IMG/VR virus record: IMGVR_UViG_3300047539_000055
Origin: a virus
Taxonomy: Duplodnaviria; Caudoviricetes
DNA: 64,000 nt
Strand: one strand, 5' to 3'
Shown here: positions 2,052 through 48,089 of the stretch, piece after piece
Numbering within the stretch: position 1 is the first letter of the stretch
Layout of the letters: each line of letters opens with the position of its first letter
The notes under the pieces: model-generated
What the model saw: the letters and a program-made list of their open reading frames with translations, nothing else
What the model was told of the DNA's origin: nothing
Database searches by the model: none
Program-made: the position numbers and the translations under genes

Positions 2052-3185
2052 ATGTCCAGTTCTATAAAAATTAGTCAACTTCCATTTGCTCCGTCTTTAT
2101 CAAATGTGGCTATTTTTCCGCTTGTTCAAAATTCAATAACAGAAAAAGCCACAATTGCACAGCTTGCCGGTTTTCTTAATGGACAGATTGGTGGTGCGCA
2201 AGGACCACAAGGAAACCAAGGTAATACTGGTGGACCGCAAGGTTTCCAAGGAAACCAAGGAAACCAAGGCAACCAAGGTACTGGAAATCAAGGAACTCAA
2301 GGAAATCAAGGAGCATCTGTCCACGGATCACAAGGTAATAATGGTGCGACAGGATTACAAGGAGTCCCTGGAACACAAGGAGTTCAAGGAGTTCAAGGAG
2401 GCCAAGGAAGCCAAGGAAATCAATCCAGCGTTCAAGGCAATCAAGGAAATCAAGGAAATCAAGGCATTCAAGGCGCTGGATTCCAAGGCACGCAGGGATC
2501 ACAAGGAAATCAAGGCAATCAAGGAACTTCTGTTCAAGGAACACAAGGTCCACAAGGTTCTGGATATCAAGGTTTTCAAGGAAATCAAGGAAATAACGGA
2601 ACGCAAGGCAATCAAGGTATTCAAGGCGCGGGATTCCAAGGCAATCAAGGAAACACTGGAACACAAGGAAATCAAGGCATTCAAGGCGCTGGATTTCAAG
2701 GCAACCAAGGCAATCAAGGAAATCAAGCAAGCAACGGAGCGCAAGGAAATCAAGGCATTCAAGGTGCTGGTTTCCAAGGAAGCCAAGGAAATCAAGGTGA
2801 CCAAGGTGGTGCTGGAACTCAAGGTAATACTGGCCCACAAGGAACTCAAGGATTACAAGGCAATCAAGGCAATCAGGGAATCCAAGGCACTCAAGGATTA
2901 CAAGGCACTCAAGGCACTCAAGGATTACAAGGAACTCAAGGCAATCAAGGCAATCAAGGAGTTGGACATATTATTGTATTGGCTAATGCTTCACCTTCAT
3001 CGCCTGGTCCATTTGTTGTAGGACACACTTTAGGCTCTGCTCCCGAAGCAGTTGCAATTACAATGATTACCGGCGGCCAGATTTGGCTAAATACTGCTAA
3101 TATTTCTATTGGGTATGATTCGGCCAATATTTATTGTGTTGCATCAGATGCTAATGTTGCAGCACGCATTTATGTATGGAGTTAA
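2052..3185 (+). CDS. collagen-like (Gly-X-Gln) fibre protein
   Basis: long G-x-Q triplet repeat; N-terminal IKISQLP motif typical of phage fibre proteins; late promoter. Confidence 0.8.
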   Translation: MSSSIKISQLPFAPSLSNVAIFPLVQNSITEKATIAQLAGFLNGQIGGAQGPQGNQGNTGGPQGFQGNQGNQGNQGTGNQGTQGNQGASVHGSQGNNGATGLQGVPGTQGVQGVQGGQGSQGNQSSVQGNQGNQGNQGIQGAGFQGTQGSQGNQGNQGTSVQGTQGPQGSGYQGFQGNQGNNGTQGNQGIQGAGFQGNQGNTGTQGNQGIQGAGFQGNQGNQGNQASNGAQGNQGIQGAGFQGSQGNQGDQGGAGTQGNTGPQGTQGLQGNQGNQGIQGTQGLQGTQGTQGLQGTQGNQGNQGVGHIIVLANASPSSPGPFVVGHTLGSAPEAVAITMITGGQIWLNTANISIGYDSANIYCVASDANVAARIYVWS

Positions 3186-11287: not shown

Positions 11288-12523
11288 ATGACCAAAAATA
11301 ATATACAATGTGCTTTTTGCAACAAGAGTAGAGATGAAAGTCTCAAAATGGTTGTTAGTGGAAGTTTTTCCATATGCGATAAGTGTGTATTTCTTTTTAA
11401 CGATCTTCTCAAAAACACACCAGAAGCAACTACTGCAATAATTCCTGAGAAAAAACATTTAGCCGAACAGCTAGACAGCATAAAGATTCGTAAATTCATT
11501 GATCAATATGTGATTGGACAAGAGCCAGCAAAGATGGCCCTTTGTGTTAGTGTAGTCAATCATTATAAGAGAATGTTGTTTGGTCAGGATAATGATAGTC
11601 TCAATAAAAGCAATCTACTGATTATGGGGCCGAGTGGCAGTGGTAAGAGTTTGTTAGTTAGCACGATTGCTAAGTTTTTAGATGTTCCATTCATTTCTGT
11701 TGATGCCACAACACTCACCGAAGCAGGATATATAGGCCAAAACGTTGATACAATCATTATGAGAATGTTGACAGAAGCAAATGGTGATATTGACGCTGTG
11801 GAAAATGGTATTGTATTTTTGGATGAAGTTGACAAGATTGCTTCAACAAAGAATAGAGTGTCAACAACCGATTCTAAAGTTGCTGGAGTTCAATCAGCAT
11901 TATTGAAAATGGTTGAAGGAACAATAGTTCCTATTGGTTCTGGATTGGATTTCAAAAGAGCAAAGCCTATTGAAGTTGATACATCCAATATTCTTTTCAT
12001 ATGTGGTGGATCGTTCAATGGACTAAATGAAATAGCGGCGGCAAGACTCAAGAAGAAGAAAGGTCTTGGTTTTTCAGATGTAGCTCCCATGATTCAAAAT
12101 ATTGAGTCTGAATATGCTACAGAAGATTTTATTGAATTTGGTTTGATTCCTGAATTTGTGGGGCGTTTTCCTATCAAGACATTTACCAAAGAACTTACTG
12201 AAGAAGAATTGGTTTGCGTTTTGAAAAATGACAAAAACAATATTTTGTCCGAATACAAATTCTATTTTGGTGTGGATGATATCGAATTAGAATTTACAGA
12301 AGGTTTTTTGGAAAAGGTTGCTCATAAAACCAAATTTGAGAAATCTGGTGTACGTGGTCTTCGTTCCCTGTGCGACAATATCATGTTATCCCATTTATAT
12401 TTGATACCAGAATATAAAAAGAGGAATGTAACCAAAGTAACATTTGATGGCGATTGCATAGACAAAAACCAAATACCAAAAATTGAGATTATTGAAAAAA
12501 AGCTTGACAAGAGAGCCAAATAA
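11288..12523 (+). CDS. clpX: ATP-dependent Clp protease ATP-binding subunit ClpX
   Basis: C4 zinc-binding N-domain, GPSGSGKS, DATTLTEAGYIG, FLDEVDK, LGF loop, FGLIPEFVGR. Confidence 0.93.
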   Translation: MTKNNIQCAFCNKSRDESLKMVVSGSFSICDKCVFLFNDLLKNTPEATTAIIPEKKHLAEQLDSIKIRKFIDQYVIGQEPAKMALCVSVVNHYKRMLFGQDNDSLNKSNLLIMGPSGSGKSLLVSTIAKFLDVPFISVDATTLTEAGYIGQNVDTIIMRMLTEANGDIDAVENGIVFLDEVDKIASTKNRVSTTDSKVAGVQSALLKMVEGTIVPIGSGLDFKRAKPIEVDTSNILFICGGSFNGLNEIAAARLKKKKGLGFSDVAPMIQNIESEYATEDFIEFGLIPEFVGRFPIKTFTKELTEEELVCVLKNDKNNILSEYKFYFGVDDIELEFTEGFLEKVAHKTKFEKSGVRGLRSLCDNIMLSHLYLIPEYKKRNVTKVTFDGDCIDKNQIPKIEIIEKKLDKRAK

Positions 12524-35179: not shown

Positions 35180-35245
35180 ATCATTTATTTTCAATAACAT
35201 AATTTAGTTGACACCAAACCATAATTTATGGTATACTATAAGTGT

Positions 35246-36268
35246 ATGAAAATACTATTTTCCACACAAAGCGGGTCACAATTATACGGCACTTTTACCT
35301 CGACTTCAGATGTTGATTTGAAGCATGTGGTTTTGCCATCTTTGAATAATATGTTGCTCGGTAAAAGACTCACTAATGAAGTAATCAAAACCAACAACAA
35401 AAAATTTGAGAGAAATTCTGCCGAAGATGTTGATATTGAAAATATTCCTGTGCAGATTCTTGCATATGATTTTCTTGGTGGTCAGACTTATGCCTTGGAG
35501 TTGGCCTTCGCAGTTGATTACACCGAAGCTGGTCAGATTATTCATGATCCGTTGATCCTTGGATTTTGCAGGGAACTTCGTTGCAGATTTCTGACTTCAA
35601 ATATGTCAGCATTGATTGGTTATGCTGTCAATCAGGCATCCTTGTATTCTTTCAAGGGTGAACGATTGAATGCTGTTCGCGCTGTCAAGGATTTATTTTT
35701 GAATATTGGATTGATTCATGGCCCTACTGCCAAACCAAACGAATATTCAGTTGAGTTTGAAAATATGGCTAAGGAAATTGAAAAACAGTTTCCAAAGTCT
35801 TTTTCTATAACTGAATACGAAGTTGATTGCAATGGAACTATGAAACCTTGTATCAAGGTGTTGGAAAAGATTTTGCCTTATACTAGCACTTTTGAAACTA
35901 GTCTCAAGGTTGTGAATGCTCAGCTAAAGAAATATGGTAGTCGTGCAGATGCGGCCTCCATTGATAACGTGGATTGGAAGGCTACTTCTCATGCTTTGCG
36001 TGTTGTGGAAGAGGGCATCACTTTGTTGAAAGACAGAAATCTTATTTTTCCATTCAATAAAGAGTATGTTGATTTGCTTGTATCAATCAAATTGGGCAAA
36101 CTTCCATACAATGAAGTTATTGATATGATCAATGTTAGACTGGATGAATTGAAGGCATTGGAAGTTGTATCTACCTTGCCAAAGAGCAGTCCAGAATTGG
36201 CAGAGTCATTGAATACATGGCTTGCAGAATGGTTGAGGCAATGGTATGGACTCCCGTACACGATCTAA
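35246..36268 (+). CDS. Pol-beta-superfamily nucleotidyltransferase (RlaP-like)
   Basis: GSQLYGT...SDVDLK; DWKA.SHALR...IK.G C-domain. Confidence 0.82.
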   Translation: MKILFSTQSGSQLYGTFTSTSDVDLKHVVLPSLNNMLLGKRLTNEVIKTNNKKFERNSAEDVDIENIPVQILAYDFLGGQTYALELAFAVDYTEAGQIIHDPLILGFCRELRCRFLTSNMSALIGYAVNQASLYSFKGERLNAVRAVKDLFLNIGLIHGPTAKPNEYSVEFENMAKEIEKQFPKSFSITEYEVDCNGTMKPCIKVLEKILPYTSTFETSLKVVNAQLKKYGSRADAASIDNVDWKATSHALRVVEEGITLLKDRNLIFPFNKEYVDLLVSIKLGKLPYNEVIDMINVRLDELKALEVVSTLPKSSPELAESLNTWLAEWLRQWYGLPYTI

Positions 36269-38435
36269 AGGTTGTGTCGTAAATATTCCACAGATGGGCG
36301 TGGCATATATTCACGCCTATACACCATGTATACATTCAATACGGGAGAATGGATTTCCATTGAGCATAAGAAAGTTTAAGAAATATTGGAAAGAAAAATA
36401 CAATGTACGAATTGTTTCTCCACGTAAAAACGGAGGATATAGTGATTACAAATTCATCTTTGAAGATGAAGGCGCTTATGTATTGTTTATGTTGGAGTGG
36501 GCATAATGCTTATAAAAAGTTGGAAACTAAAATCAAAATATTTTGATTCGCAATTTGATAGAGTTGCCAATACTATATGGTATATATGGTGTGATGAACG
36601 AATGAATCAGGCGAAAGATGTATTAGATGCCGAAAAATGGGAAGAACGCTTTCATTGTAAACCATTGATTTCTAAATCAGAAAAAAATACTTGGGATGGA
36701 TTGATTTTTAATGATGAAGCGCATTATATGCTATTTCTTTTGGAGTGGGCATGATTGAAAAAATTTGGGATAAAAATTTACCTGATTACGATAAAAATTT
36801 TGATCTAATTAGCGATAATATTTGGGATGCTTGGCGTGAAGAATGTAATAGTAAGCCTCTTGATCTTCATAATGATGCTGTAAAATTTGAAAGAAGATTT
36901 AGTTATAAGCCAATAATTGGTGAAAGTAAGAATTGGAAGGGTTTAAGATTTAGAAATGAAGGCCACTATATGCTGTTTCTTTTGGAGTGGGCATGATTAG
37001 AAAAATTTGGAATGCTGATTCACCTAATTACGATAACCAGTTTGATAAAGCCAGTGACAATCTTTGGGATGTTTGGCGCGAAGAATGTGGGGATGTTCGT
37101 AATAGGAAAAAATTTATAGAAAGATTTGGTTATAAGCTATTTGTAGACTCAGGCTCTTGGGATGGTTTGATATTTAGAAATAAGGGCCATTACATGCTGT
37201 TCTTATTGGAATGGAGCTGAAATGTATAAAGCTTCCGTTGAATATATGGGCATCACTTTTGAACATGCGTGGCAACATGCAGTTGATGAGTTACCACTAG
37301 GATGCAGCGGAGAGGCAGTCATTCGTTATTTCAAAGAAAATTATGATGTTGAACTCATTTATGGAATTTCGACTGAGAGGTATGGTAACAATTTTGGGTG
37401 GCAGTTTGCCGAATTTAAAAGTAAATCAGCATATGTGATGTTTATGTTGGAATGGAGCTAAATGGCATATCAAGTGTGTATCAAACCTGGAAGTAAGCAA
37501 TTTACACCCTTTGTTCATACTATATTTCATAGAGCGCACGAGGCAATATTTGAGTCTTGTACTAATCCTAGTATGAAGGAATTGCGTGATGCTTGGTATG
37601 AGAAATTTAAAGTAAAAATCATTTATAAAAAATCACTTGAAACTTGGACGCATCTTGAGTTTGAAAATAAAGGGGCATATATATGTTGTTTATGCTGGAG
37701 TGGTCATGAAATATAGAGCAACTTATAAGAGTATATTGCCTACTTATAACAAGGCATGGGGGGCATTACATACTCCATTCATTCTTAATTGGACTTGGGA
37801 AAAAATTGAAAAAGAATTCAAGGAAAAACATCACGCTACTTTAATTCGTTCAGCAGAAACAAATTTTTTTGAATTTATTGAATTTGAAAGTGAAGGCGAT
37901 TTTGTATTGTTTATGTTGGAATGGAGTTGAAATGTACAACACGACACCTAACAAACTTGGCGTAGCATTTGATAGAGCATGGGATGCAGCATCCGTATCC
38001 ATAGATGAGGGTAGTATAGATCAAATAGAAAAATATTTCAAAGAACGATGGAAAATTACTTTATCTGATAAAATTCTTGAAAAATCTGAAGCTTGGAATC
38101 CGTATGTATGGGAATGTGTAAGTTTCAAAAGCAAAGCGGCGTTTGTATTGTTTATGTTGGAATGGAGTTGAATGAAATACCAAACAACAGCAAAAGCATT
38201 GGGAAATGCATTTCACAATGCACATCAATCATTATGGAAGAATGGTGAATTCAATCATACCCTATCGGTTAAGAAACAAGTTCAGGGTTGGAAAGATAAA
38301 TTCCATGTTAAAATAACTGGTGGACATTTTGATAATGTTTTTTCAACAGGAGAAAATGAATGGAATACTGAAGATGTTGTTCTTGAATTTGAAAGTGAAG
38401 CAGCATGTATGTTGTTTATGTTGGAATGGAGTTGA
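36246..38435 (+). repeat. tandem array of 9 small ORFs ending F..E..(Y/F).LF(M/L)LEW(S/A) (tail family C)
   Basis: ORFs 36246-36506, 36506-36754, 36751-36996, 36993-37220, 37222-37461, 37462-37716 (frameshifted tail), 37706-37930, 37932-38171, 38172-38435; DNA tgtttatgttggaatggagttga recurs at gene ends. Confidence 0.85.
37462..37716 (+). pseudogene. family C member with +2 frameshift in an (AT)4 run just before the tail
   Basis: deleting one AT at 37677-37684 restores GAYMLFMLEWS* with an ATGA overlap onto the next gene. Confidence 0.7.
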
Positions 38436-38436
38436 T

Positions 38437-39006
38437 ATGGCAATCTTAGTAACGGCTGATCCGCACTTCGGGCACCGCAATATTTTGAAATTTTGTTCTC
38501 GTCCGTTTGCAAATGTAAACGAAATGGACGAAGTGTTGATCAAAAATTGGAACAGTGTAACTCGACCGGAAGACGAAATTCATGTTGTGGGTGATTTTGC
38601 GTTTTGCTGTACGATGGATTATGCGTTGAACATCATGAAGAGATTGAACGGCACAAAGCATTTGGTCACTGGTAATCACGATGAACTTGCTCTCAAGATG
38701 AATGATATACGACCAGGCACTTGGAAGACGATCAAAGAAATGAATGAAATTGTCATTCAGAATCAGAAAATTGTTTTATGTCATTATCCAATAGCCGATG
38801 GACATTGGCATCATGCGTATAAAGGAGTATGGATGCTATACGGTCATGTTCATGGAACTTTTCAAAATCCAGGAAAATCATTGGATGTAGGCGTTGATTG
38901 TTGGAATTACACACCGGCAAACTTTCAAGATATCAAAAAGAAAATGGATGATCGGCCAAATCCATTTGTAATACAGAAAAAAGATCAATGGGATAAATCA
39001 GAATGA
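38437..39006 (+). CDS. calcineurin-like metallophosphoesterase
   Basis: ADPHFGH, VGDF, GNHD, LCHYP, GHVH. Confidence 0.9.
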   Translation: MAILVTADPHFGHRNILKFCSRPFANVNEMDEVLIKNWNSVTRPEDEIHVVGDFAFCCTMDYALNIMKRLNGTKHLVTGNHDELALKMNDIRPGTWKTIKEMNEIVIQNQKIVLCHYPIADGHWHHAYKGVWMLYGHVHGTFQNPGKSLDVGVDCWNYTPANFQDIKKKMDDRPNPFVIQKKDQWDKSE

Positions 39007-39157
39007 AAAGAGAAACAATGAACGCATTTTTCAATAAAGTTTGGCACGCAATAAGAACTTTCTTTGTTGCGCCTGATCATGTGTTTGCAGATGAACTCAC
39101 TGACGAAACTGGTCGTCCACTAACCGATGAATCTTTAGATGATATCACAGAGGAATA

Positions 39158-39749: not shown

Positions 39750-39835
39750 ATCCCAAGTCTCTGAAAATAAAGGACTTGGGATTGCTGTTTCTATTGACTT
39801 TCTAATTGAAATTTGGTATACTATATTTGTAGTTG
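39750..39835 (+). promoter_or_regulatory. early promoter cassette with IHF-like site
   Basis: aagtctctgaaaataaaggactt, TTGACT(39794)-17-TATACT, atatttgtagt leader. Confidence 0.7.
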
Positions 39836-39837
39836 AA

Positions 39838-41187
39838 ATGGGGTATTCAGTGACCAACACCAATGAAATGAGAAAGGCCGCGCTGAGTGTTATGTCTACA
39901 CTCACTAAGGCAGGTTTTGTCTCCTATATGGTTGGCGGTTGCGTTCGTGATACTCTGCTTGGCAAGGAGCCAAAGGATTTTGACGTAACCACCAATGCTA
40001 CTCCCGATCAGGTTGCTGCACTTTTCAACAACTCTGCTTTCGTTGGTGCACATTTTGGTGTGAGCCTTGTAAAGTTTGAGGATGCTGATGTGGAAGTTGC
40101 TACTTTTCGCCGTGATGGTGAATATAGCGACAATCGCCGCCCTGACTCTGTTGAATTGACTTTGGATGTTCGCGAAGATGTTACTCGCCGCGATTTTACT
40201 GTCAATGCTCTGTTGATGGACGAAAACGGAAATGTGGTTGATCATGTTAACGGTTTGGTTGACTTGAACAATCGCGTTCTGCGTTGCGTTGGAAATCCTG
40301 ATGATCGTTTTAATGAGGATTCTCTGCGAATGCTTCGCGCAGTTCGTTTCTGTGCCATGCACGAATTTGTGCTTGAGTCTGATACTTTCAATGCGATAGT
40401 TCGTAACGCACATCTTGTCAAGAATGTCAGCGCAGAACGTGTTGCTGGCGAATTGTCCAAGATGCTTGTCAGCGGTCATGCCGATGTTGCTTTTGATCTT
40501 CTGTTGGAAACTGGTTTGGCAAAGTTTGTAATGCCTGAACTCTGTGACTTTGTAGGTTGTGAGCATAACTCCAGCTTTCACCCCGAAGGCGATGTTGCGA
40601 ACCATGTTCGTCTCTTGCTTGCTGGTTTGGAAAAGGGTTGCTCTTTGACTCTTGCATTGGCAGTTTTGCTGCACGATGTGGCGAAGCCGCGTACTCGTGG
40701 CGTTACTAAGGAAGGTAAGACTCATTTTCGTGGTCACGAAAATGTTGGCGCTGATATGGCAAAGGACATACTGCATCGTTTGAAGTTTTCTAACGATGTT
40801 ACCGATGTTGTTGTCAATCACGTAAAGAACCATATGAAGTTTTTCGTTGCGCGTCAGATGAAGCGTAGCACTCTTATGCGTTTCTTGCGTTTGCCGAACT
40901 TTGCTGAACTTCTGGCACTTGGCAAGTTGGACGTTGGAGCCTCTAACAAGGATTTCAGCGATGTTGAATTTGTTGAGCGTTTTTTGAAGGAACACGGTGA
41001 TGAACTGACTCGTGAACGATTTGTAAATGGTGACGACTTGATAGCGATGGGTTTTGTTCCTGGTCCTAACTTCAAGGTGTTGCTTGAGCAGGTTGAAACT
41101 GAGCAGTTTGAAAATCGCTTGACTACTCGTGAGGCCGCGCTGAATTTTGTTCGTGCGCGGTCACCACGGCGAGAAAAGAGAAAGTGA
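39838..41187 (+). CDS. cca: CCA tRNA nucleotidyltransferase / poly(A) polymerase family, with HD domain
   Basis: VGGCVRD.LLG..PKDFDV, RRDFTVNA, EDSLRMLRAVRF, LLHDVAK. Confidence 0.88.
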   Translation: MGYSVTNTNEMRKAALSVMSTLTKAGFVSYMVGGCVRDTLLGKEPKDFDVTTNATPDQVAALFNNSAFVGAHFGVSLVKFEDADVEVATFRRDGEYSDNRRPDSVELTLDVREDVTRRDFTVNALLMDENGNVVDHVNGLVDLNNRVLRCVGNPDDRFNEDSLRMLRAVRFCAMHEFVLESDTFNAIVRNAHLVKNVSAERVAGELSKMLVSGHADVAFDLLLETGLAKFVMPELCDFVGCEHNSSFHPEGDVANHVRLLLAGLEKGCSLTLALAVLLHDVAKPRTRGVTKEGKTHFRGHENVGADMAKDILHRLKFSNDVTDVVVNHVKNHMKFFVARQMKRSTLMRFLRLPNFAELLALGKLDVGASNKDFSDVEFVERFLKEHGDELTRERFVNGDDLIAMGFVPGPNFKVLLEQVETEQFENRLTTREAALNFVRARSPRREKRK

Positions 41188-43337
41188 TGACAGTCGGTGA
41201 TTATTTTGAATGTAAAACAATTGTTAATGATGGCTGTAAAAATATAACTAACGTTGGAACATTAGTAGGTATTTTTGGTGAAGGACTACTAATGATTCAG
41301 ACGGAAAAATTTTTACTTCATTTTGAAAAGAAAGATTGCCGCAAAATGTCCGATGGTGAAGCAATGCTTGCGAAATTGGAGAGTGAGTAATGAAAATCGG
41401 TGATTATGTAATGGTTAGATTTTCAGCCATGGATATTTCTTTTGGTAAGATTATTGAGGTAGGATCGCGGAAGACAAGGATGGATAGTAGAAGTATTATT
41501 AGAGTTGAATTAATCAATGACCACGATGGCGTCGATCCAAGATATAAAGTACCACCTGAGTATCTAACAGTATTGACTGATGAAGAAGCGATGCTCAAGC
41601 GATTGGAGTATTAGAATGAAAGTCGGTGATTTTGTAATAGTTAAGTTTCGACAAGATGATATTTGCTTTGCGAAAATTATTGAACTGAGTTCATCTCAAA
41701 ATATTCTGGTTAAATTAATTGGGGATGATCCAAAAAATTACGAATTAACGGTTGGACTAAGTATGGTAACAGTATTGACTGATGAAGAGGCGATGCTCAA
41801 GCGATTGGAGTATTCAGAATGACCACTACACCAAAAATCGGTGATTATATCACGGCTGATATACCTGCTCATGGCAGTGTGAAAGCATTTCATATGTTTG
41901 GTCAATTGTCATCAATTTTGGATAAAAAAGAGTATATGTTCATATTTATCGTTACCGATTTTAAAAACCATGATCATCGAGTTGGTTTTTTAGAAAACGA
42001 ATTGATAATCCTTTCTGATGAACAGGCAATGTTACATATGTTGGAGGCCGAATAATGAAAGTTGGTGATTATGTTATTACATATAGCCGTACTAATGATG
42101 ATATTGTCCATTTGGATCACATAGTTGCCTGTGGTGTTGCTACAGAGTTTGGTGCTGATACCACAGTAATTGTGAAGGATCGTTTTGGAAATAAAGATTG
42201 TGCTTATATCGACAGAGCCGAAAAAATTGATGAAGGTCGTTATATGTTATGGATGTTGGAGAACTAATGAAAGATGTAAACAATAACGAACTCCATGTTG
42301 GCGATTATGTCAAATTCAAGCACCCAAACGCAATTGACTTTACTATGAGTGCTAGAAACGGTATTATTATAAAAATTAACCAAAACCAAAACCTAATAGA
42401 AATTAACCAATACCTATCTGATGGTGTTGTAATTGATGAATATGGAGATGGAAAAATTTGGAAAATTCCATCAAACGTTCAGCTTATGACTGATGGTGAA
42501 ATAATGCTGTATATGTTGGAGAACTAATGAAAAATACCTTACAAAACGGTGATTGGGCCAAATTTGAAGATTTGATGTTTGTAAAAGTGGTGCAGGTTAA
42601 CCTTAATAATGTCAAAATTTCTTATAAAGGCACTGAATATCTAATTCAAAAGGAGAAGCTTAAAAAAGCAACTGATGGCGATCTGATGTTGTGGAAACTT
42701 GAACATCCAGACGAGAAGATTGGAAGCTAATATGACAGACAAAAATGGAAGCAAACTTGAAATTGGCGATGTGATTTATTTTGCGTTCAAAAAATTATCA
42801 AAGGAAGTTTATATCATCAATAATATATCTCGGCAACCTACTTGGCAACCTATTGAATGGGCGGAAATTCGTAACAATCATTATGGTACAATGTGGCAAG
42901 CTGGCTGTGATATTGAAAAATTATCTGATGGGAAGGCAATGCTATGGATGTTGGAAAACTAAGGAGAATTGAAATGAAAACTAAACTAAAAGTTGGCGAT
43001 TACATAAAAAATACTAATGCCGAAGGTAAAGTTATTGGCAAACTCGTAAACATCCACGAATTAGATGATGATGATACTGTTTACTGCCCGGCAGAATGCC
43101 AGACCGATAATTGGATGATATATCCGATTGAATTCGTAGAAAAGGCAACAGACGAAGAAGCAATGCTGTTTATGTTGGAAAACTAAAGGAGAACGATATG
43201 AAAAAGATTATTGGGAAAGATATCAACGGCGAAATCATTAGAGAAGGCGATTTTATGACTCATAAAACAAAAGGATTTGTTATATGGACAAGAAATCAAC
43301 AAGAGAAGCATATGTTTTATGGATGCTTGAAAACTAA
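41184..43337 (+). repeat. tandem array of about 10 small KVGD (KOW/SH3-like) ORFs ending (S/T)DEEAML.MLE (tail family D)
   Basis: 41184-41390, 41390-41614, 41616-41822, 41819-42055, 42055-42267, 42267-42527, 42527-42730, 42732-42962, 42974-43186, plus a broken copy at 43198-43337. Confidence 0.85.
43198..43337 (+). pseudogene. internally deleted, frameshifted family D member
   Basis: starts KDINGEIIREGD; tail KKSTREAYVLWMLEN* lies in the -1 frame ending at 43337. Confidence 0.65.
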
Positions 43338-43368
43338 CGCAATTCTAACCGAACTAAAGGAGACTGAA

Positions 43369-43701
43369 ATGAAAAAAAGAGCATTTGATCCGAACAAAGA
43401 TTTATATTGGCGTGATAAAGACACTGAAGAGGTTGTATATGTTGAGCAAGATGGAAAGTGGGTTCTTGCCCCGCACAAAGAAACCGACGAAGAGTTTGTC
43501 AAAAAACTATATCCCGAAGCAAGGCTGGAACTGGTTCATTATTTGCCTCCTGCCAGAGATAATTTTTATCAATATCAAATAAATCTTGAACCCGAAGCAC
43601 GAAAGCAAAATCATACAAGCAGGGGCAGACATCCGATCAAGGAATGGACTAAAGCCAGAAATAAGATTGACAGAGAAATTCGGAAAAAGTTTGAAAACTA
43701 A
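43369..43701 (+). CDS. hypothetical protein
   Basis: strong AAGGAG RBS before ATG 43369; ends IRKKFEN. Confidence 0.6.
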   Translation: MKKRAFDPNKDLYWRDKDTEEVVYVEQDGKWVLAPHKETDEEFVKKLYPEARLELVHYLPPARDNFYQYQINLEPEARKQNHTSRGRHPIKEWTKARNKIDREIRKKFEN

Positions 43702-43732
43702 CGCAACAATAACCGAACTAAAAGGAGACAAT

Positions 43733-43954
43733 ATGAAGACGCAAAAGTTCAACAATTTTAGATATGTTCAAGAATTTTATTTTGATAAGGCTATAACCCT
43801 TGAAGAAATGAAAAAGCGATCCGCAGATTGGGAAGACGATTTATGGACGCCTTGGGCAGATAACAACATAAAAGGGGTGGAGATCACAGCGATGGCTTGG
43901 TTTGAAAGTGTAAAACCAGGCGAAGAACGAGCAAAAAATACAAAGGAGAACTAA
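43733..43954 (+). CDS. hypothetical protein
   Basis: AAGGAG RBS. Confidence 0.55.
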   Translation: MKTQKFNNFRYVQEFYFDKAITLEEMKKRSADWEDDLWTPWADNNIKGVEITAMAWFESVKPGEERAKNTKEN

Positions 43955-43955
43955 A

Positions 43956-44168
43956 ATGAGTGATTGGGAAGAACGTAAGTCGTTATTGAAAATAATGCTT
44001 GCCGAAATTGAAGCCGATGAATTGGCAAAAAAGCCGAAGCGTGGCAGACCGCCATTATACACTAAAGATGAAATCAAGGAACGCGTTCGACAGCAACGCA
44101 AGAAGTGTTGGGATAAACACGCGAAACAATATTACGAGAATCGACGTAAGAAACTGAAGGAGGTCTAA
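43956..44168 (+). CDS. small basic protein with AT-hook
   Basis: KPKRGRPP; AAGGAG RBS. Confidence 0.6.
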   Translation: MSDWEERKSLLKIMLAEIEADELAKKPKRGRPPLYTKDEIKERVRQQRKKCWDKHAKQYYENRRKKLKEV

Positions 44169-44169
44169 A

Positions 44170-44466
44170 ATGGAAGTCCTGACTTGGATATGGGCAATGT
44201 TTTGGATATTTGTAGCAATACTGATTATACTGCTTATAGGATTGTCTATAGTATCCTACGCAATCAAGAAAATCAAAAAACCGCAACCGATAATCAAGAA
44301 AATCAAAAAACCGGTCAAAAAGCCGATCAAAATGAAGGAGGAAACGAGCGGGCTTGTTAGACTGCTCAAGATGATCGTAAAATTCGTATTGTGTTGGTGG
44401 TTGTTTTGTTTGTTGTTTTGGGGAATAGCAATTGTCCTGGTTGCGGCCTTCACTCTTATCAACTAA
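44170..44466 (+). CDS. membrane protein with IKKIKKP repeat
   Basis: two TM helices around a duplicated basic loop; GGAGG RBS. Confidence 0.6.
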   Translation: MEVLTWIWAMFWIFVAILIILLIGLSIVSYAIKKIKKPQPIIKKIKKPVKKPIKMKEETSGLVRLLKMIVKFVLCWWLFCLLFWGIAIVLVAAFTLIN

Positions 44467-44491
44467 ATCAAATATTTGGTGTAAAGAACCG

Positions 44492-46021
44492 ATGGAAAAC
44501 AATTTTGACAAGAAAGGAGTGGGTATTTTTAAAAAAGGTTATGAAAATAGTTCGCACGTTTTCATAGCAGTGGTGGACTTAATTTGGCCAGAGCGTGTTT
44601 CTGATTATGGAAAATATTCACAAAACATTCGTTGTATGACAGATGGTGAAGAAATGTTATGGATGCTGGAGAACAAATGAAAGACATAAATGACACTCCG
44701 TTAAAAATTGGAGATTATGTTGAATTTCGAACAAGCGGTGCATTATATTCAGTTTTTGCTACACCATTTGATAAATTTGGTATTATTGAAGAAGATGTCG
44801 GGAGCATGATTAGAAGTAGATATATTGTTAATGGTGTCAGTCGTACTCAAGCAAAATATCCTGGAAATTTGCGTAAATTAACTGACATTAGCAAAATTAT
44901 GTTGCTCATACTGGAGAACTAATGAACGATTTTTATTTTGATGTAAATGGAAATGAAATTGTATTTGGCGATCTTGTTTGGTTTCAAGATAGTACAAATT
45001 TTCATGCCGTTGGAAAATTTGAAAGTAAATGTAAATGTGAAGCGTATACGGATGAAGAGCGTGCCTGGTTTCATATATCTTTTACTAACGCGACAACACA
45101 GCATAGAACATTGGAAGGAATAAAACGAATCCCTGATACACATTTGATGTTGATAAAATTTGAAAGCTAATATGAGCCAAATACTAAAAGTCGGGGACTA
45201 TGTAAGATACGATGCCAGCAATGGTACGTTACCACCATTGATTGGTAAAATAGTTGCGCGAGATGAAAGAAAGCATTATTGGAATGTACGTTACCACCTT
45301 GATATACTTCCATCACAAAGTAAATATCTTACTAAAATGAGCAACGAAGACGCGATGCTGTATATTTTGGAAAATAATGGAACAAAAATTTAAAGTCGGT
45401 GATTATGTAAAATACGGTGTCCGTGATGGAAAGGGATATAGCGCTCTGGCTAAAATTGTTTGTAAAGATGATGAAATTTTTTCAGGCTGGCAGACTTGGA
45501 GAATATCATTTGTTACTGATGCTAATGATGTTTCCTATCCAACATCAGAAACATATATTACTAAACTTTCAGATGATGAAGCAATGATATGGATGTTGGA
45601 GCTATAATGGAAAACTTCAAAGCCGGAGACTTCGCAAAATTTGATTGTACTGATGGAAGGTCACCCGGATTTCTTGTTAAAATTCTTAGTAAGGATCGTG
45701 TAGATAATATGATGTATGATGCATGGAAGGTAAAATATAAAGGGCGAGAGTATGGTTACATAATGGAAAAACATCTTACCAAAATGACAGACGAAGAAGC
45801 AATGTTGATGATGTTTGAGGAGCAATATGAAAGTCGGTGATTTTGTCAAATATGATGTCAAGGGTACTATGGTGCATGTTGGTAGATTGATTGAATACAA
45901 ACCAACAGTGAATTATTGGATGGTATTTTATTTTCAGCCACAATGCATTCTTCCATCACTGCCTGAATTCCTTACTAAAATGAGCGATGAAGAAGCCATG
46001 TTGTATATGTTTGAAAAATAA
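44492..46021 (+). repeat. tandem array of 7 family D small ORFs
   Basis: 44492-44680, 44677-44922, 44922-45170, 45172-45393, 45377-45607, 45607-45840, 45827-46021; KVGDYV starts and ..EEAML..(L/F)E ends. Confidence 0.85.
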
Positions 46022-46085
46022 GGACTTAGAATAATCTTGACTTTTGGGCATAAATTTGGTATACTGTATTTGTAGTCGAGAGGGA
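46007..46085 (+). promoter_or_regulatory. early promoter cassette with IHF-like site
   Basis: tttgaaaaataaggacttag; TTGACT(46037)-17-TATACT; tttgtagtcgagaggg. Confidence 0.7.
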
Positions 46086-46088
46086 ACA

Positions 46089-46484
46089 ATGAGTACTCGT
46101 AGCGCAATTCTTGAAAAGACGGATTCTGGTTATCGTGGAATCTATTGTCATTCAGATGGTTATGTTACAGGTGTCGGCAAAATGCTTGTCGAAAATTTTA
46201 CTGACCCTGCAAAGGTATCTGCGCTTATTGATCTTGGTGATATTAGTTATCTTGAGGAAAATCTTGTTCCGACAGAATTTCATTCATTTGACAAGCCACA
46301 AGAAGGCGTTGTCGTAGCTTATGGCCGTGATCGTGGTGAAACAGGCACGAAAGCGGTTCGAGGAAAAACCATCAAAGCAGTTGCGAAAAAGATTGATCAC
46401 GCATATTTGTATGTTTTTGAGGATGGTCATTGGTCGGTAGACGGGAAATCAATAGATGCCCTGCTACTTAAGTTGGAGTCATGA
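46089..46484 (+). CDS. conserved hypothetical phage protein (IYCHSDGY family)
   Basis: MSTRS.I...IYCHSDGY...VG..L; ends LLLKLES. Confidence 0.7.
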   Translation: MSTRSAILEKTDSGYRGIYCHSDGYVTGVGKMLVENFTDPAKVSALIDLGDISYLEENLVPTEFHSFDKPQEGVVVAYGRDRGETGTKAVRGKTIKAVAKKIDHAYLYVFEDGHWSVDGKSIDALLLKLES

Positions 46485-46650
46485 TGTTGATTGTTATGCT
46501 CATATGTGCTGGATTATTGATTTGGTCAGTTATCCATGAAATTCGTGACATACGCAAAAAGGAATTCCTCGCAAAGTTAATGGATTGCGAATATGTCCAA
46601 ATTGGGTATGGAGATTATTTCATACCCAAAAATTGAAAAGGAGAATCAAA

Positions 46651-47022
46651 ATGGCATTGGAAAATTTAGGTAGTTTCACAGGTTCAGAAAATTTTCACCG
46701 CAATGGAATGAATCGCAGGTTCATTTATACCGATGGCGCTAAGTATGTTGCCGATGAAGCTGGTGCATATTGGCTCATTGATGATATCGCGATTGCGAAC
46801 GCATTTGACCAGAATCTAAAGGGCGAAGAGTTTCAGACTTGGACTCTCACGAAGACAGGAAACTCCGCGACCCTTATTGCCACTGACGGCAATGATAGGG
46901 TTTTGTATTCCAAGGGAATTGAGTACACTGATTTTCCGTTGGAATCCATCAAGTTTTATGTGGTTTCCGCCGAAGATTTTGGTGTGAACCATTTGATGCT
47001 GATGTTGCCTAGCGAATACTAA
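46651..47022 (+). CDS. DUF6876-like protein
   Basis: YTDGAKYVA..AGAYWL.D.I...IEYTDFPL...LMLPSEY. Confidence 0.7.
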   Translation: MALENLGSFTGSENFHRNGMNRRFIYTDGAKYVADEAGAYWLIDDIAIANAFDQNLKGEEFQTWTLTKTGNSATLIATDGNDRVLYSKGIEYTDFPLESIKFYVVSAEDFGVNHLMLMLPSEY

Positions 47023-47023
47023 A

Positions 47024-47242
47024 ATGACAGAAACCAGAAAAATCCCGAACAAAAAGCCTCTTCGTGAATTGGTAGCTCGTGCTATATATGCAAGTCAAGG
47101 GTGTCCTATTGATTCCGCTGGTGTGTGGTATGAAATCGTCAATGACAAGAAAGTAGTTATGGACGGCTTTGAAAAGTGGTATGTAATGGCCGACGCTGCG
47201 ATCAAGGCAGTCAGAAAGTACAATAGAAAGCGTGGCAGATAA
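47024..47242 (+). CDS. hypothetical protein
   Basis: coupled ORF; VARAIY...ADAAI. Confidence 0.5.
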   Translation: MTETRKIPNKKPLRELVARAIYASQGCPIDSAGVWYEIVNDKKVVMDGFEKWYVMADAAIKAVRKYNRKRGR

Positions 47243-47327
47243 TGTTTGATCATCGTTATCATCTTGCCTTGGATAAGGTATTTCCGATTCTGAACCAGGT
47301 TCCAGAACCGCCAAAGGAATTGAGATA

Positions 47328-47528
47328 ATGACAGCCCATTTTAGTTTTGAAGCCACAATAGGATTTCGTAAAGAGATAAGGGATTTTCTATTGCGATGCA
47401 AGATGAAAAATCCCTTGATTACTTTTGACGAATCAAAGGGTTTTTTAGTAAATACATTTTTTGTATGCGGTCCTGAAAAAGAGATACAGAACATTTATGA
47501 CGTTCTTGATGGATGGAACAAAAATTGA
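47328..47528 (+). CDS. hypothetical protein
   Basis: 66-aa ORF. Confidence 0.45.
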   Translation: MTAHFSFEATIGFRKEIRDFLLRCKMKNPLITFDESKGFLVNTFFVCGPEKEIQNIYDVLDGWNKN

Positions 47529-47665
47529 GACGTGCCAACATCATTGGCTAGTCGGAAGTCTAAACCGATAAAGAGAAGCGAGAGTGATACTCGTAAAACA
47601 CGGACGCTGGAGAACAGGGTGGAATTTCGGGGGAGCCAACTGCTATGATCCTGCCCACCCTGCCA
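47529..47665 (+). ncRNA. candidate structured intergenic RNA
   Basis: GC-rich gap with hairpins ccaa/ttgg, tcgg/ccga, cgag/ctcg closed by cgtg/cacg, then cagggtgg/ccaccctg. Confidence 0.45.
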
Positions 47666-47680
47666 GAGAAAAGATGAATT

Positions 47681-48089
47681 ATGACTGACAAAACATTAAA
47701 AACAGGAGATATGGTTAAGATTACATTTGTCCACGGTCCTCCCCCTAGACTTGGGTGTGTTAAAGACGTTTATTCAGATACAATCATTGTAAGTTTTGAA
47801 GGTCATGGAAGTTATGGATATTTTCCTAGTATGGTTAGAAAAGTATCTGATGAAGAGGCAATGTTGATGATGTTTGAGCGATAATATGAAAAACAAAATG
47901 TTTGGAATAGGCGATATTGTTAGTGTTTCTTTTAGTCAAGTTCCTCGGCAGATTGGATGTATTTTGTATGTTGATAATCACGTAATCACTGTACGTTTTG
48001 GGGATAAAAGAACCGCTCCCTGTTTTCCTAATATGATTAGAAACGTTTCTGATGAAGTAGCAATGTTGTGGATGTTGGAGAACGCATAA
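47681..48089 (+). repeat. two paralogous family D ORFs (47681-47884, 47886-48089)
   Basis: GD.V...F...PR..GC...FP.M.R.VSDE.AML.M.E. Confidence 0.75.

Follow-up and report, generated by a model that had tools for sequence, protein, structure and literature searches.

The 64,000-nucleotide stretch of a Caudoviricetes virus analysed here (IMG/VR record IMGVR_UViG_3300047539_000055; hereafter the window) carries nine tandem, translationally coupled small genes of 74-87 amino acids (aa) on the + strand at 36246-38435, flanked by an RlaP/NrdC.11-type nucleotidyltransferase upstream and a metallophosphoesterase downstream. We find direct support for the nine genes, C1 to C9, being paralogs of one homologous, undescribed family of stand-alone small domains. 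The junction sequences directly support a second conclusion, namely that the last three or four codons of the conserved C-terminal tail would double as the ribosome-binding site of the next gene, and the family tree gives the same direct support to reading the array as old subfamilies lying side by side and not as a burst of recent duplication. On balance we lean slightly towards a reading that combines an old paralog family, a tail that would be a core helix with an embedded ribosome-binding site, turnover of gene cassettes and a role as early binders of varied targets; most of our doubt attaches to the function.

Nine coupled genes of one protein family

A first-pass annotation made from the sequence by a model had listed nine consecutive open reading frames (ORFs) here, tightly coupled and directly after the nucleotidyltransferase. 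All nine are present on the + strand where it placed them, and the observation stands well above chance. Each true start is an ATG at the stop of the gene before it, either overlapping that stop or directly adjoining it (as TAATG, as ATGA or across 0-1 nucleotides, nt). The junctions run from overlaps of 4 nt to gaps of 1 nt, and the GTG and TTG starts returned by the ORF finder were rejected as upstream extensions of these ATGs. C1 overlaps the nucleotidyltransferase by 23 nt and has GAGG ahead of its ATG. We took the long C1 start because the alignment to the family hidden Markov model (HMM) begins at residue 9 of its open frame and the N-terminal extension is shared with a relative. ORFs in alternative frames containing CLCWSGH or CLCWNGV (36403-36546, 37637..., 37869...) were discarded as artefacts in which conserved tail DNA is read in another frame. 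The resulting features are as follows.

36246..36506, + strand: C1, 86 aa, basic (isoelectric point, pI, 9.5), ending LEWA, family HMM E 2.4e-19
36506..36754, + strand: C2, 82 aa, subfamily with the pattern MI.K.W..YD..FD, ending LEWA, modelled at a predicted local distance difference test score (pLDDT) of 95.5
36751..36996, + strand: C3, 81 aa, subfamily of C2, recent duplicate partner of C4
36993..37220, + strand: C4, 75 aa, ending LEWS
37222..37461, + strand: C5, 79 aa, acidic (pI 4.8), ending LEWS, modelled at pLDDT 90.1
37462..37716, + strand: C6, frameshifted; the ancestral frame would stop at 37709
37706..37930, + strand: C7, 74 aa, ending LEWS
37932..38171, + strand: C8, 79 aa, ending LEWS
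38172..38435, + strand: C9, 87 aa, subfamily with the pattern GGHFD...EWNT, ending LEWS; orthologs G002_c and P0007
36476..38438, + strand: nine junction repeats (gene tail, GGAG, stop and next ATG), 34-60 nt each, spaced 221-264 nt apart

The family HMM matches all nine copies (E 1e-16 to 1e-23) and finds no further copy in the window. The loose body pattern that had been noticed, F..A(W/H), is real and is confirmed across the copies. The ending LF(M/L)LEW(S/A), described as near-invariant, holds in eight copies and fails in C6, where 2 extra nt (AT) in the TATATATG run at about 37678-37685 shift the frame. As written C6 ends ...CCLCWSGHEI; without the 2 nt it would end ...YMLFMLEWS with a stop at 37709. 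An intact ortholog of C6 (P0005) occurs on 13 metagenome contigs and in the related loci L003-L008. The frameshift reflects a real pseudogene or else a mistake in the assembly.

None of the nine copies has a match in Pfam, PHROGs v4, NCBIfam or PADLOC, and 66 relatives scanned singly against Pfam, PHROGs, NCBIfam and PADLOC gave scattered single matches, none of them consistent. A profile of the nine copies searched against 1.84 billion proteins returned 186 cluster representatives at E<=1e-3 (45 at <=1e-10). These are all 45-100 aa long except for one spurious repeat protein, most align over the whole profile, and wherever a source names them the name is 'hypothetical'. A dedicated search for longer, fused forms found none, which is weak evidence. 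Most of the proteins are mildly acidic, with a median pI of 5.8, and aromatic residues are abundant in them. We regard the family as one of small proteins of predicted alpha/beta fold in large environmental phages.

A putative ribosome-binding site within the conserved tail

At every junction of the array a GGAG lies 4-8 nt 5' of the next ATG, and it is formed by codons of the tail. There are two ways in which this happens. A terminal GCA or TCA codon goes with GAG for Glu (ttG GAG; 4/4 in the window, 11/11 over four arrays). A terminal AGY codon itself completes the motif (tGG AGy), and Glu is then encoded by GAA, the usual codon in this genome (5/5 in the window, 11/13 over four arrays). The counts over four arrays are not independent of one another; in the window alone the switch of Glu codon gives a Fisher p of 0.008.

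The same signal is found beyond the family. In genes outside it, the share of GAG among Glu codons is 19 % in the bodies and 36 % in the last six codons (p 2e-4), and genome-wide the last six codon positions are enriched 2x in Glu and 1.5x in Leu. At 63 of the 80 tight + strand junctions a GGAG or GGA-type site falls within the end of the upstream gene, often as TTGGAG, which is mostly read as Leu-Glu and in places, in another frame, as Gly-Val. We consider that embedded ribosome-binding sites probably account for part of the shared ..L-E-x ends that the first-pass annotation had grouped as tail families A and D. This is a caution for sequence-only reading of compact phage genomes, in which a shared C-terminal ..L-E-x can come from the TTGGAG of the next gene. 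Elsewhere in the window, a 377-aa collagen-repeat protein (2052-3185) ends ..VWS (TGG AGT TAA); its Trp-Ser codons supply a GGAG by the tGG AGy solution seen in the array, with the next gene 9 nt downstream.

The predicted fold and the place of the tail in it

AlphaFold gave confident models for two distant paralogs, C2 (pLDDT 95.5; predicted template modelling score, pTM, 0.82) and C5 (pLDDT 90.1, pTM 0.77), and both have the topology strand-helix-helix-strand-strand-helix. No convincing relative of either turned up among solved structures. Foldseek found no match in PDB at E<=0.001; two wide VIA-align searches reached a best Z of 4.0 and 3.5, less than unrelated arrangements usually reach, and structural comparison placed RNA recognition motif (RRM) and ABM-type entries weakly, at Z ~3. 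A profile search of PDB sequences gave a best E of 0.11, with the nucleolin RNA-binding domain at E 0.2. Structural matches in BFVD were confined to uncharacterised proteins of uncultured phages (best template modelling score 0.76). A homodimer prediction for C5 (two copies, 66-row alignment) scored 0.01, a value that speaks neither for nor against binding.

The first-pass annotation had seen two parts in these proteins, a variable recognition surface and a separate constant docking end. The variability is borne out and lies in the surface of helix 1 and two loops of variable length. The separate docking end is not supported: both models make Y.LFMLEW(S/A) the closing helix of the domain (pLDDT 91-97; residues 68-77 in C5), hydrophobic on all faces, and it carries the GGAG of the next gene. 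This helix, helix 3, is not amphipathic. Its hydrophobic moment is 0.07-0.09, compared with 0.3-0.6 for helices 1 and 2, its mean hydrophobicity is 0.31-0.54, and conserved positions occupy two opposing faces, one with Y71, F74, M75 and W78, the other with V72, L73 and L76. The models directly support the tail being a structured part of the domain, and most likely it forms the middle of the fold along with the invariant Phe in the strand before it. A membrane anchor was considered for the tail and rejected, the hydrophobic stretch being just 8-9 residues long.

Old subfamilies and turnover of gene cassettes

In a family tree that is poorly resolved, having only 79 usable columns, the nine copies of the window are scattered over the whole family and require nine changes, no better than shuffled labels. 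Most of them pair at high local support with a protein of another phage; only C3 and C4 lie near each other. Because the copies scatter and pair in this way, we read the array as an assembly of old subfamilies.

One relative, locus L003, has 87-94 % nt identity. It shows the same nucleotidyltransferase end, C1, an extra copy that the window lacks, C2, one gene in place of C3 and C4, C5, an intact C6, C7 and C8. C7 and its ortholog there share just 67 % identity, with the changes concentrated in the N-terminal third. Compared with L003, the ratio of nonsynonymous to synonymous substitution rates (dN/dS) is 0.66 in the bodies, 0.26 in the last 16 codons and 0.13 in the adjacent nucleotidyltransferase at the same dS. 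The bodies thus evolve about five times faster than the enzyme (Fisher p 0.0018), while the difference between body and tail, to which the first-pass annotation had pointed, is not significant (p 0.28). Its term for the array, a diversified paralog library, is apt for a family with a constant scaffold and fast bodies; it does not fit in that the diversity is ancient and not freshly generated.

The junctions contain direct-repeat families D1 and D2 (34-60 nt, spacing 221-264 nt), and a 167-nt direct repeat of 77 % identity links the C2/C3 junction region to that of C3/C4. Unequal recombination at the junction repeats would offer a route for gain, loss and fusion of cassettes, and the comparison among relatives directly supports such turnover being ongoing.

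A back-translated tail pattern located two further IMG/VR contigs. G002, a 65 kb fragment, has the nucleotidyltransferase, six copies and the phosphoesterase. The metallophosphoesterase is a conserved downstream neighbour, and locus L001 shows the gene order of the window at this point. In G001 (360 kb, about 90 % complete) four copies stand behind the nucleotidyltransferase, and a further pair lies 12 kb from them. The fourth copy of G001 (L019, 714-1256, - strand) is 180 aa long, with about 70 family residues followed by unrelated sequence in place of the conserved tail, apparently a fusion or truncation. Other large phages have a single copy in unrelated neighbourhoods, and no member was found in the genome of Tunturi_5 or around nrdC.11 of T4.

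On a 187 kb JGI contig (L009, 5258-6512) a single member adjoins three small proteins of differing length with similar strand-helix ends (..LILFILIWS, ..ATKFTMCI and ..KTWFSLMFA), of which the one of 139 aa weakly matches the family HMM (5e-4). These neighbours may belong to a wider superfamily.

Neighbouring genes and promoters

Three features flank the array.

35208..35237, + strand: sigma-70-like extended -10 promoter, TTGACA-N18-TGGTATACT, 11/12 consensus positions
35228..36268, + strand: RlaP / T4 NrdC.11-type nucleotidyltransferase, phrog_388 2.5e-53, Pfam RlaP 1.2e-5
38437..39006, + strand: metallophosphoesterase, phrog_547 1.5e-50, with its ribosome-binding site inside the C9 tail

The promoter belongs to a motif, TTGAC-N17-19-TATAMT, of which the window has 14 copies, all + strand, where 0.35 would be expected. 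In its fuller form, TTGAC(A/T)-N17-19-(TGG)TATA(C/A)T, the motif falls within 5000-48766, mostly with TG preceding the -10 box, at sites that include 8085, 13460, 17619, 17773, 35208, 39794, 46037 and 48738 (+). It probably marks the early, host-polymerase promoters of the phage and splits the window into operons. One copy lies at 35208, just 5' of the nucleotidyltransferase, the next at 39794, and no promoter-like or terminator-like site was found at the junctions within 36246-38435; for this reason the array looks like part of one early-type operon comprising the nucleotidyltransferase, the nine small genes, the phosphoesterase and three more small ORFs, with the 35208 promoter as its presumed start. 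The promoter type suggests early expression of the array.

The nucleotidyltransferase matches phrog_388 over residues 5-338 and PF10127 at 25.6 bits (cut-off 23), and is 36-42 % identical to the KVP40 nrdC.11 and Tunturi_5 nucleotidyltransferases. Homologs are present in 1424 phage records, KVP40 nrdC.11 among them. Its true start is probably the second ATG, 35246, since the G001 homologs begin at the second Met. With that start the -10 box ends just 9 nt upstream, which suggests a very short leader or none.

Other genes of the window include two RNA ligases, a CCA-adding enzyme, three tRNAs, a DnaB-type helicase and, at 11288-12523, a ClpX homolog. The contig carrying the proteins of the window is 353,395 bp long, which makes this a giant phage. 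Among 50,697 deposited phage records there is no DNA similarity to 35200-39100, and a tblastn search of the same records with C9 gave no meaningful match. For the nucleotidyltransferase, the nearest cultured relative (42 % identity) is found in a soil acidobacterium phage of 309 kb, and the array has its closest relatives in soil metagenomes.

Proposed role and alternative explanations

We propose the following account of the array. Each protein would fold as strand-helix-helix-strand-strand-helix, with its conserved end as the last helix at the centre of the fold, packed with the invariant strand Phe. The last tail codons would also provide the GGAG for the next gene in the coupled chain, which would add a constraint at the nucleotide level. 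Unequal recombination at the 34-60 nt junction repeats would add, remove and fuse cassettes, and old subfamilies, each with its own orthologs in other phages, would be kept side by side. The proteins may act as early accessory proteins in which helix 1, the loop between helices 1 and 2 and the hairpin of strands 2 and 3 vary on a constant scaffold and bind a range of host or defence targets, which may, in view of the RNA-repair genes nearby, be host nucleases. Under this account the apparent constant docking end is more simply explained by the architecture of the fold plus translational coupling.

Several observations weigh against parts of this proposal. All members end (L/M)(E/K/R)W(S/A/G) with the stop directly after, and about 95 % of family members stop exactly one residue past Trp. 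Conservation is also clearly higher across the last 17 residues, with 3.7-4.3 bits at F65, F74, L76 and W78 compared with 1.9-3.0 at other core positions. Both go beyond what a core helix alone would require. The conservation of the tail among database matches is partly circular, the search profile having been built from tail-conserved copies. The burial of the tail was deduced from composition and model confidence. The first-pass annotation had named, as the outcome contrary to its own view, a tail that is simply the buried core of one fold with uniform conservation; we find a tail that looks like a core helix and conservation that is not uniform.

In other phages, members with an LKWS ending retain Trp-Ser although no GGAG is present, which means that the ribosome-binding site alone cannot explain the tail. 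The tail codons vary synonymously between copies. These two observations, together with the tail dN/dS of 0.26, indicate that the tail peptide itself is under selection. In the bodies, dN/dS stays under 1 at 0.66, a value as compatible with relaxed constraint as with diversifying selection, and a binder or anti-defence role would follow solely by analogy with other early phage accessory arrays.

An adaptor library, in which the constant C-terminal helix with its free Trp-Ser carboxyl end docks on a shared phage or host hub, such as ClpX or ClpS of the phage or one of the neighbouring enzymes, and the bodies recruit targets, would draw on the same stronger conservation of the last 17 residues, on the end that nearly always falls one residue past Trp and on the Trp-Ser retained where there is no GGAG. 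The all-face hydrophobic helix would also fit insertion into the groove of a partner. ClpX is encoded by this phage and by the relatives G001 and G002; however, this co-occurrence is among close relatives only and has no independent weight. A second small-protein family of the window (41187-48089, ends ..EEAML.MLE) has a weakly similar end: in a profile comparison only the last 16 columns align (probability 46 %, hhalign P 2e-4), covering the end of a strand, a Ser/Thr-Asp/Glu cap, a hydrophobic helix and Leu-Glu, and this is too weak to separate a shared module from convergence. Both AlphaFold models, on the other hand, give a well-packed domain helix at very high confidence and not a flexible tag, the single-copy members of other large phages sit in quite different neighbourhoods, and the embedded ribosome-binding site explains part of the terminal conservation. 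We therefore consider the library unlikely, and the idea that the tail helix with its free Trp-Ser end is the recognition module for a phage hub, with ClpX or ClpS of the phage itself as the most attractive candidate, is decidedly improbable. Should it be true, the paralogs, and perhaps other families sharing the tail, would be adaptors handing host proteins to one machine early in infection.

The neighbourhood of the array suggests that the small proteins could be accessory subunits of RNA-repair enzymes, binding RlaP, the phosphoesterase or both and tuning the choice of substrate, for example among damaged tRNAs. RlaP adds nucleotides to damaged RNA ends (PMC12776372, PMC7824862). RlaP is followed at once by the array, which begins ahead of the RlaP stop, in three lineages (the window together with L003, G002 and G001), the array ends at the phosphoesterase in the window and in G002, the window is rich in RNA-repair genes (the RNA ligases, CCA-adding enzyme and tRNAs mentioned above), and the sole structural resemblances, all weak, are to RRM-like sandwiches. 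Yet the second array of G001 is away from any nucleotidyltransferase, single-copy members in other phages have no such neighbour within 6 kb, the closest RlaP homologs of cultured phages (Tunturi_5, T4) have no adjoining family member, and the mildly acidic character of most members is unlike that of RNA binders. This explanation, too, is an unlikely one. It is also quite unlikely that the tail helix is an oligomerisation surface through which the paralogs form homo- or hetero-oligomers and so a combinatorial set of complexes. The two opposite conserved hydrophobic faces would allow it, and translationally coupled neighbours are often subunits of one complex (PMC10666635); against this, hetero-oligomers cannot be essential to a family that occurs in single copy, and AlphaFold confidently folds the monomer alone. 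Finally, the frameshifted C6, the copy number that differs between close relatives and the high dN/dS of the bodies could reflect decaying duplicates of little or no function that survive by chance in a plastic region of the genome. We find this very improbable, as dN/dS is below 1, and lower still in the tail, orthologs of every subfamily are found in several phages and a large number of metagenomes, and the open frames have been maintained along with their start codons and ribosome-binding sites.

The reading that we lean towards, an old family of early accessory proteins with a structural tail and an embedded ribosome-binding site, adds a widespread uncharacterised family (186 clusters, no curated family, no structural neighbour) to the early accessory genes of giant phages. 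Its nine-copy expansion inside an RNA-repair operon makes the array a reasonable candidate set for screens of host takeover and counter-defence.

Comparison with known systems

The predicted fold recalls ferredoxin-like and RRM sandwiches, which likewise place helices on a small antiparallel sheet and whose second half the final strand-helix unit of the array family resembles. It differs from them in having no fourth strand, a split first helix and no sequence similarity, and the comparison reaches a Z of 3-4 only. A degron or docking tag of the ssrA type, recognised by ClpX, is an unstructured, accessible peptide carried on unrelated bodies. The tail of the array family is instead predicted as an integral helix at pLDDT 91-97, and its bodies all belong to one homologous family.

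In overlapping gene pairs the ribosome-binding site usually lies within the upstream gene and often matters for re-initiation (PMC6728339). The junctions of the array resemble those pairs in being ATGA, TAATG or near-abutting, with a GGAG 4-8 nt before the start and inside the upstream coding sequence. What differs is that in the array the site coincides with the most conserved peptide motif of the family and is kept through two codon solutions.

The nearest known parallel to the array lies in the hyperplastic regions of T4-type phages, in which small early genes are exchanged at conserved junction motifs, the PeSL elements (PMC2839356, PMC4122927). As in those phages, the array consists of small, early, mostly uncharacterised genes between conserved enzymes, relatives differ by insertion, deletion or replacement of whole genes, and short conserved junctions are the likely recombination sites. 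Unlike the T4-type regions, the cassettes of the array are all of one protein family, and the junction is a coding tail with a ribosome-binding site and a start codon. A PeSL element is an early promoter plus stem-loop lying between the shuffled genes, whereas the genes of the array overlap or are <=1 nt apart. By analogy, the array would thus resemble PeSL shuffling in the way it works, from outside that class.

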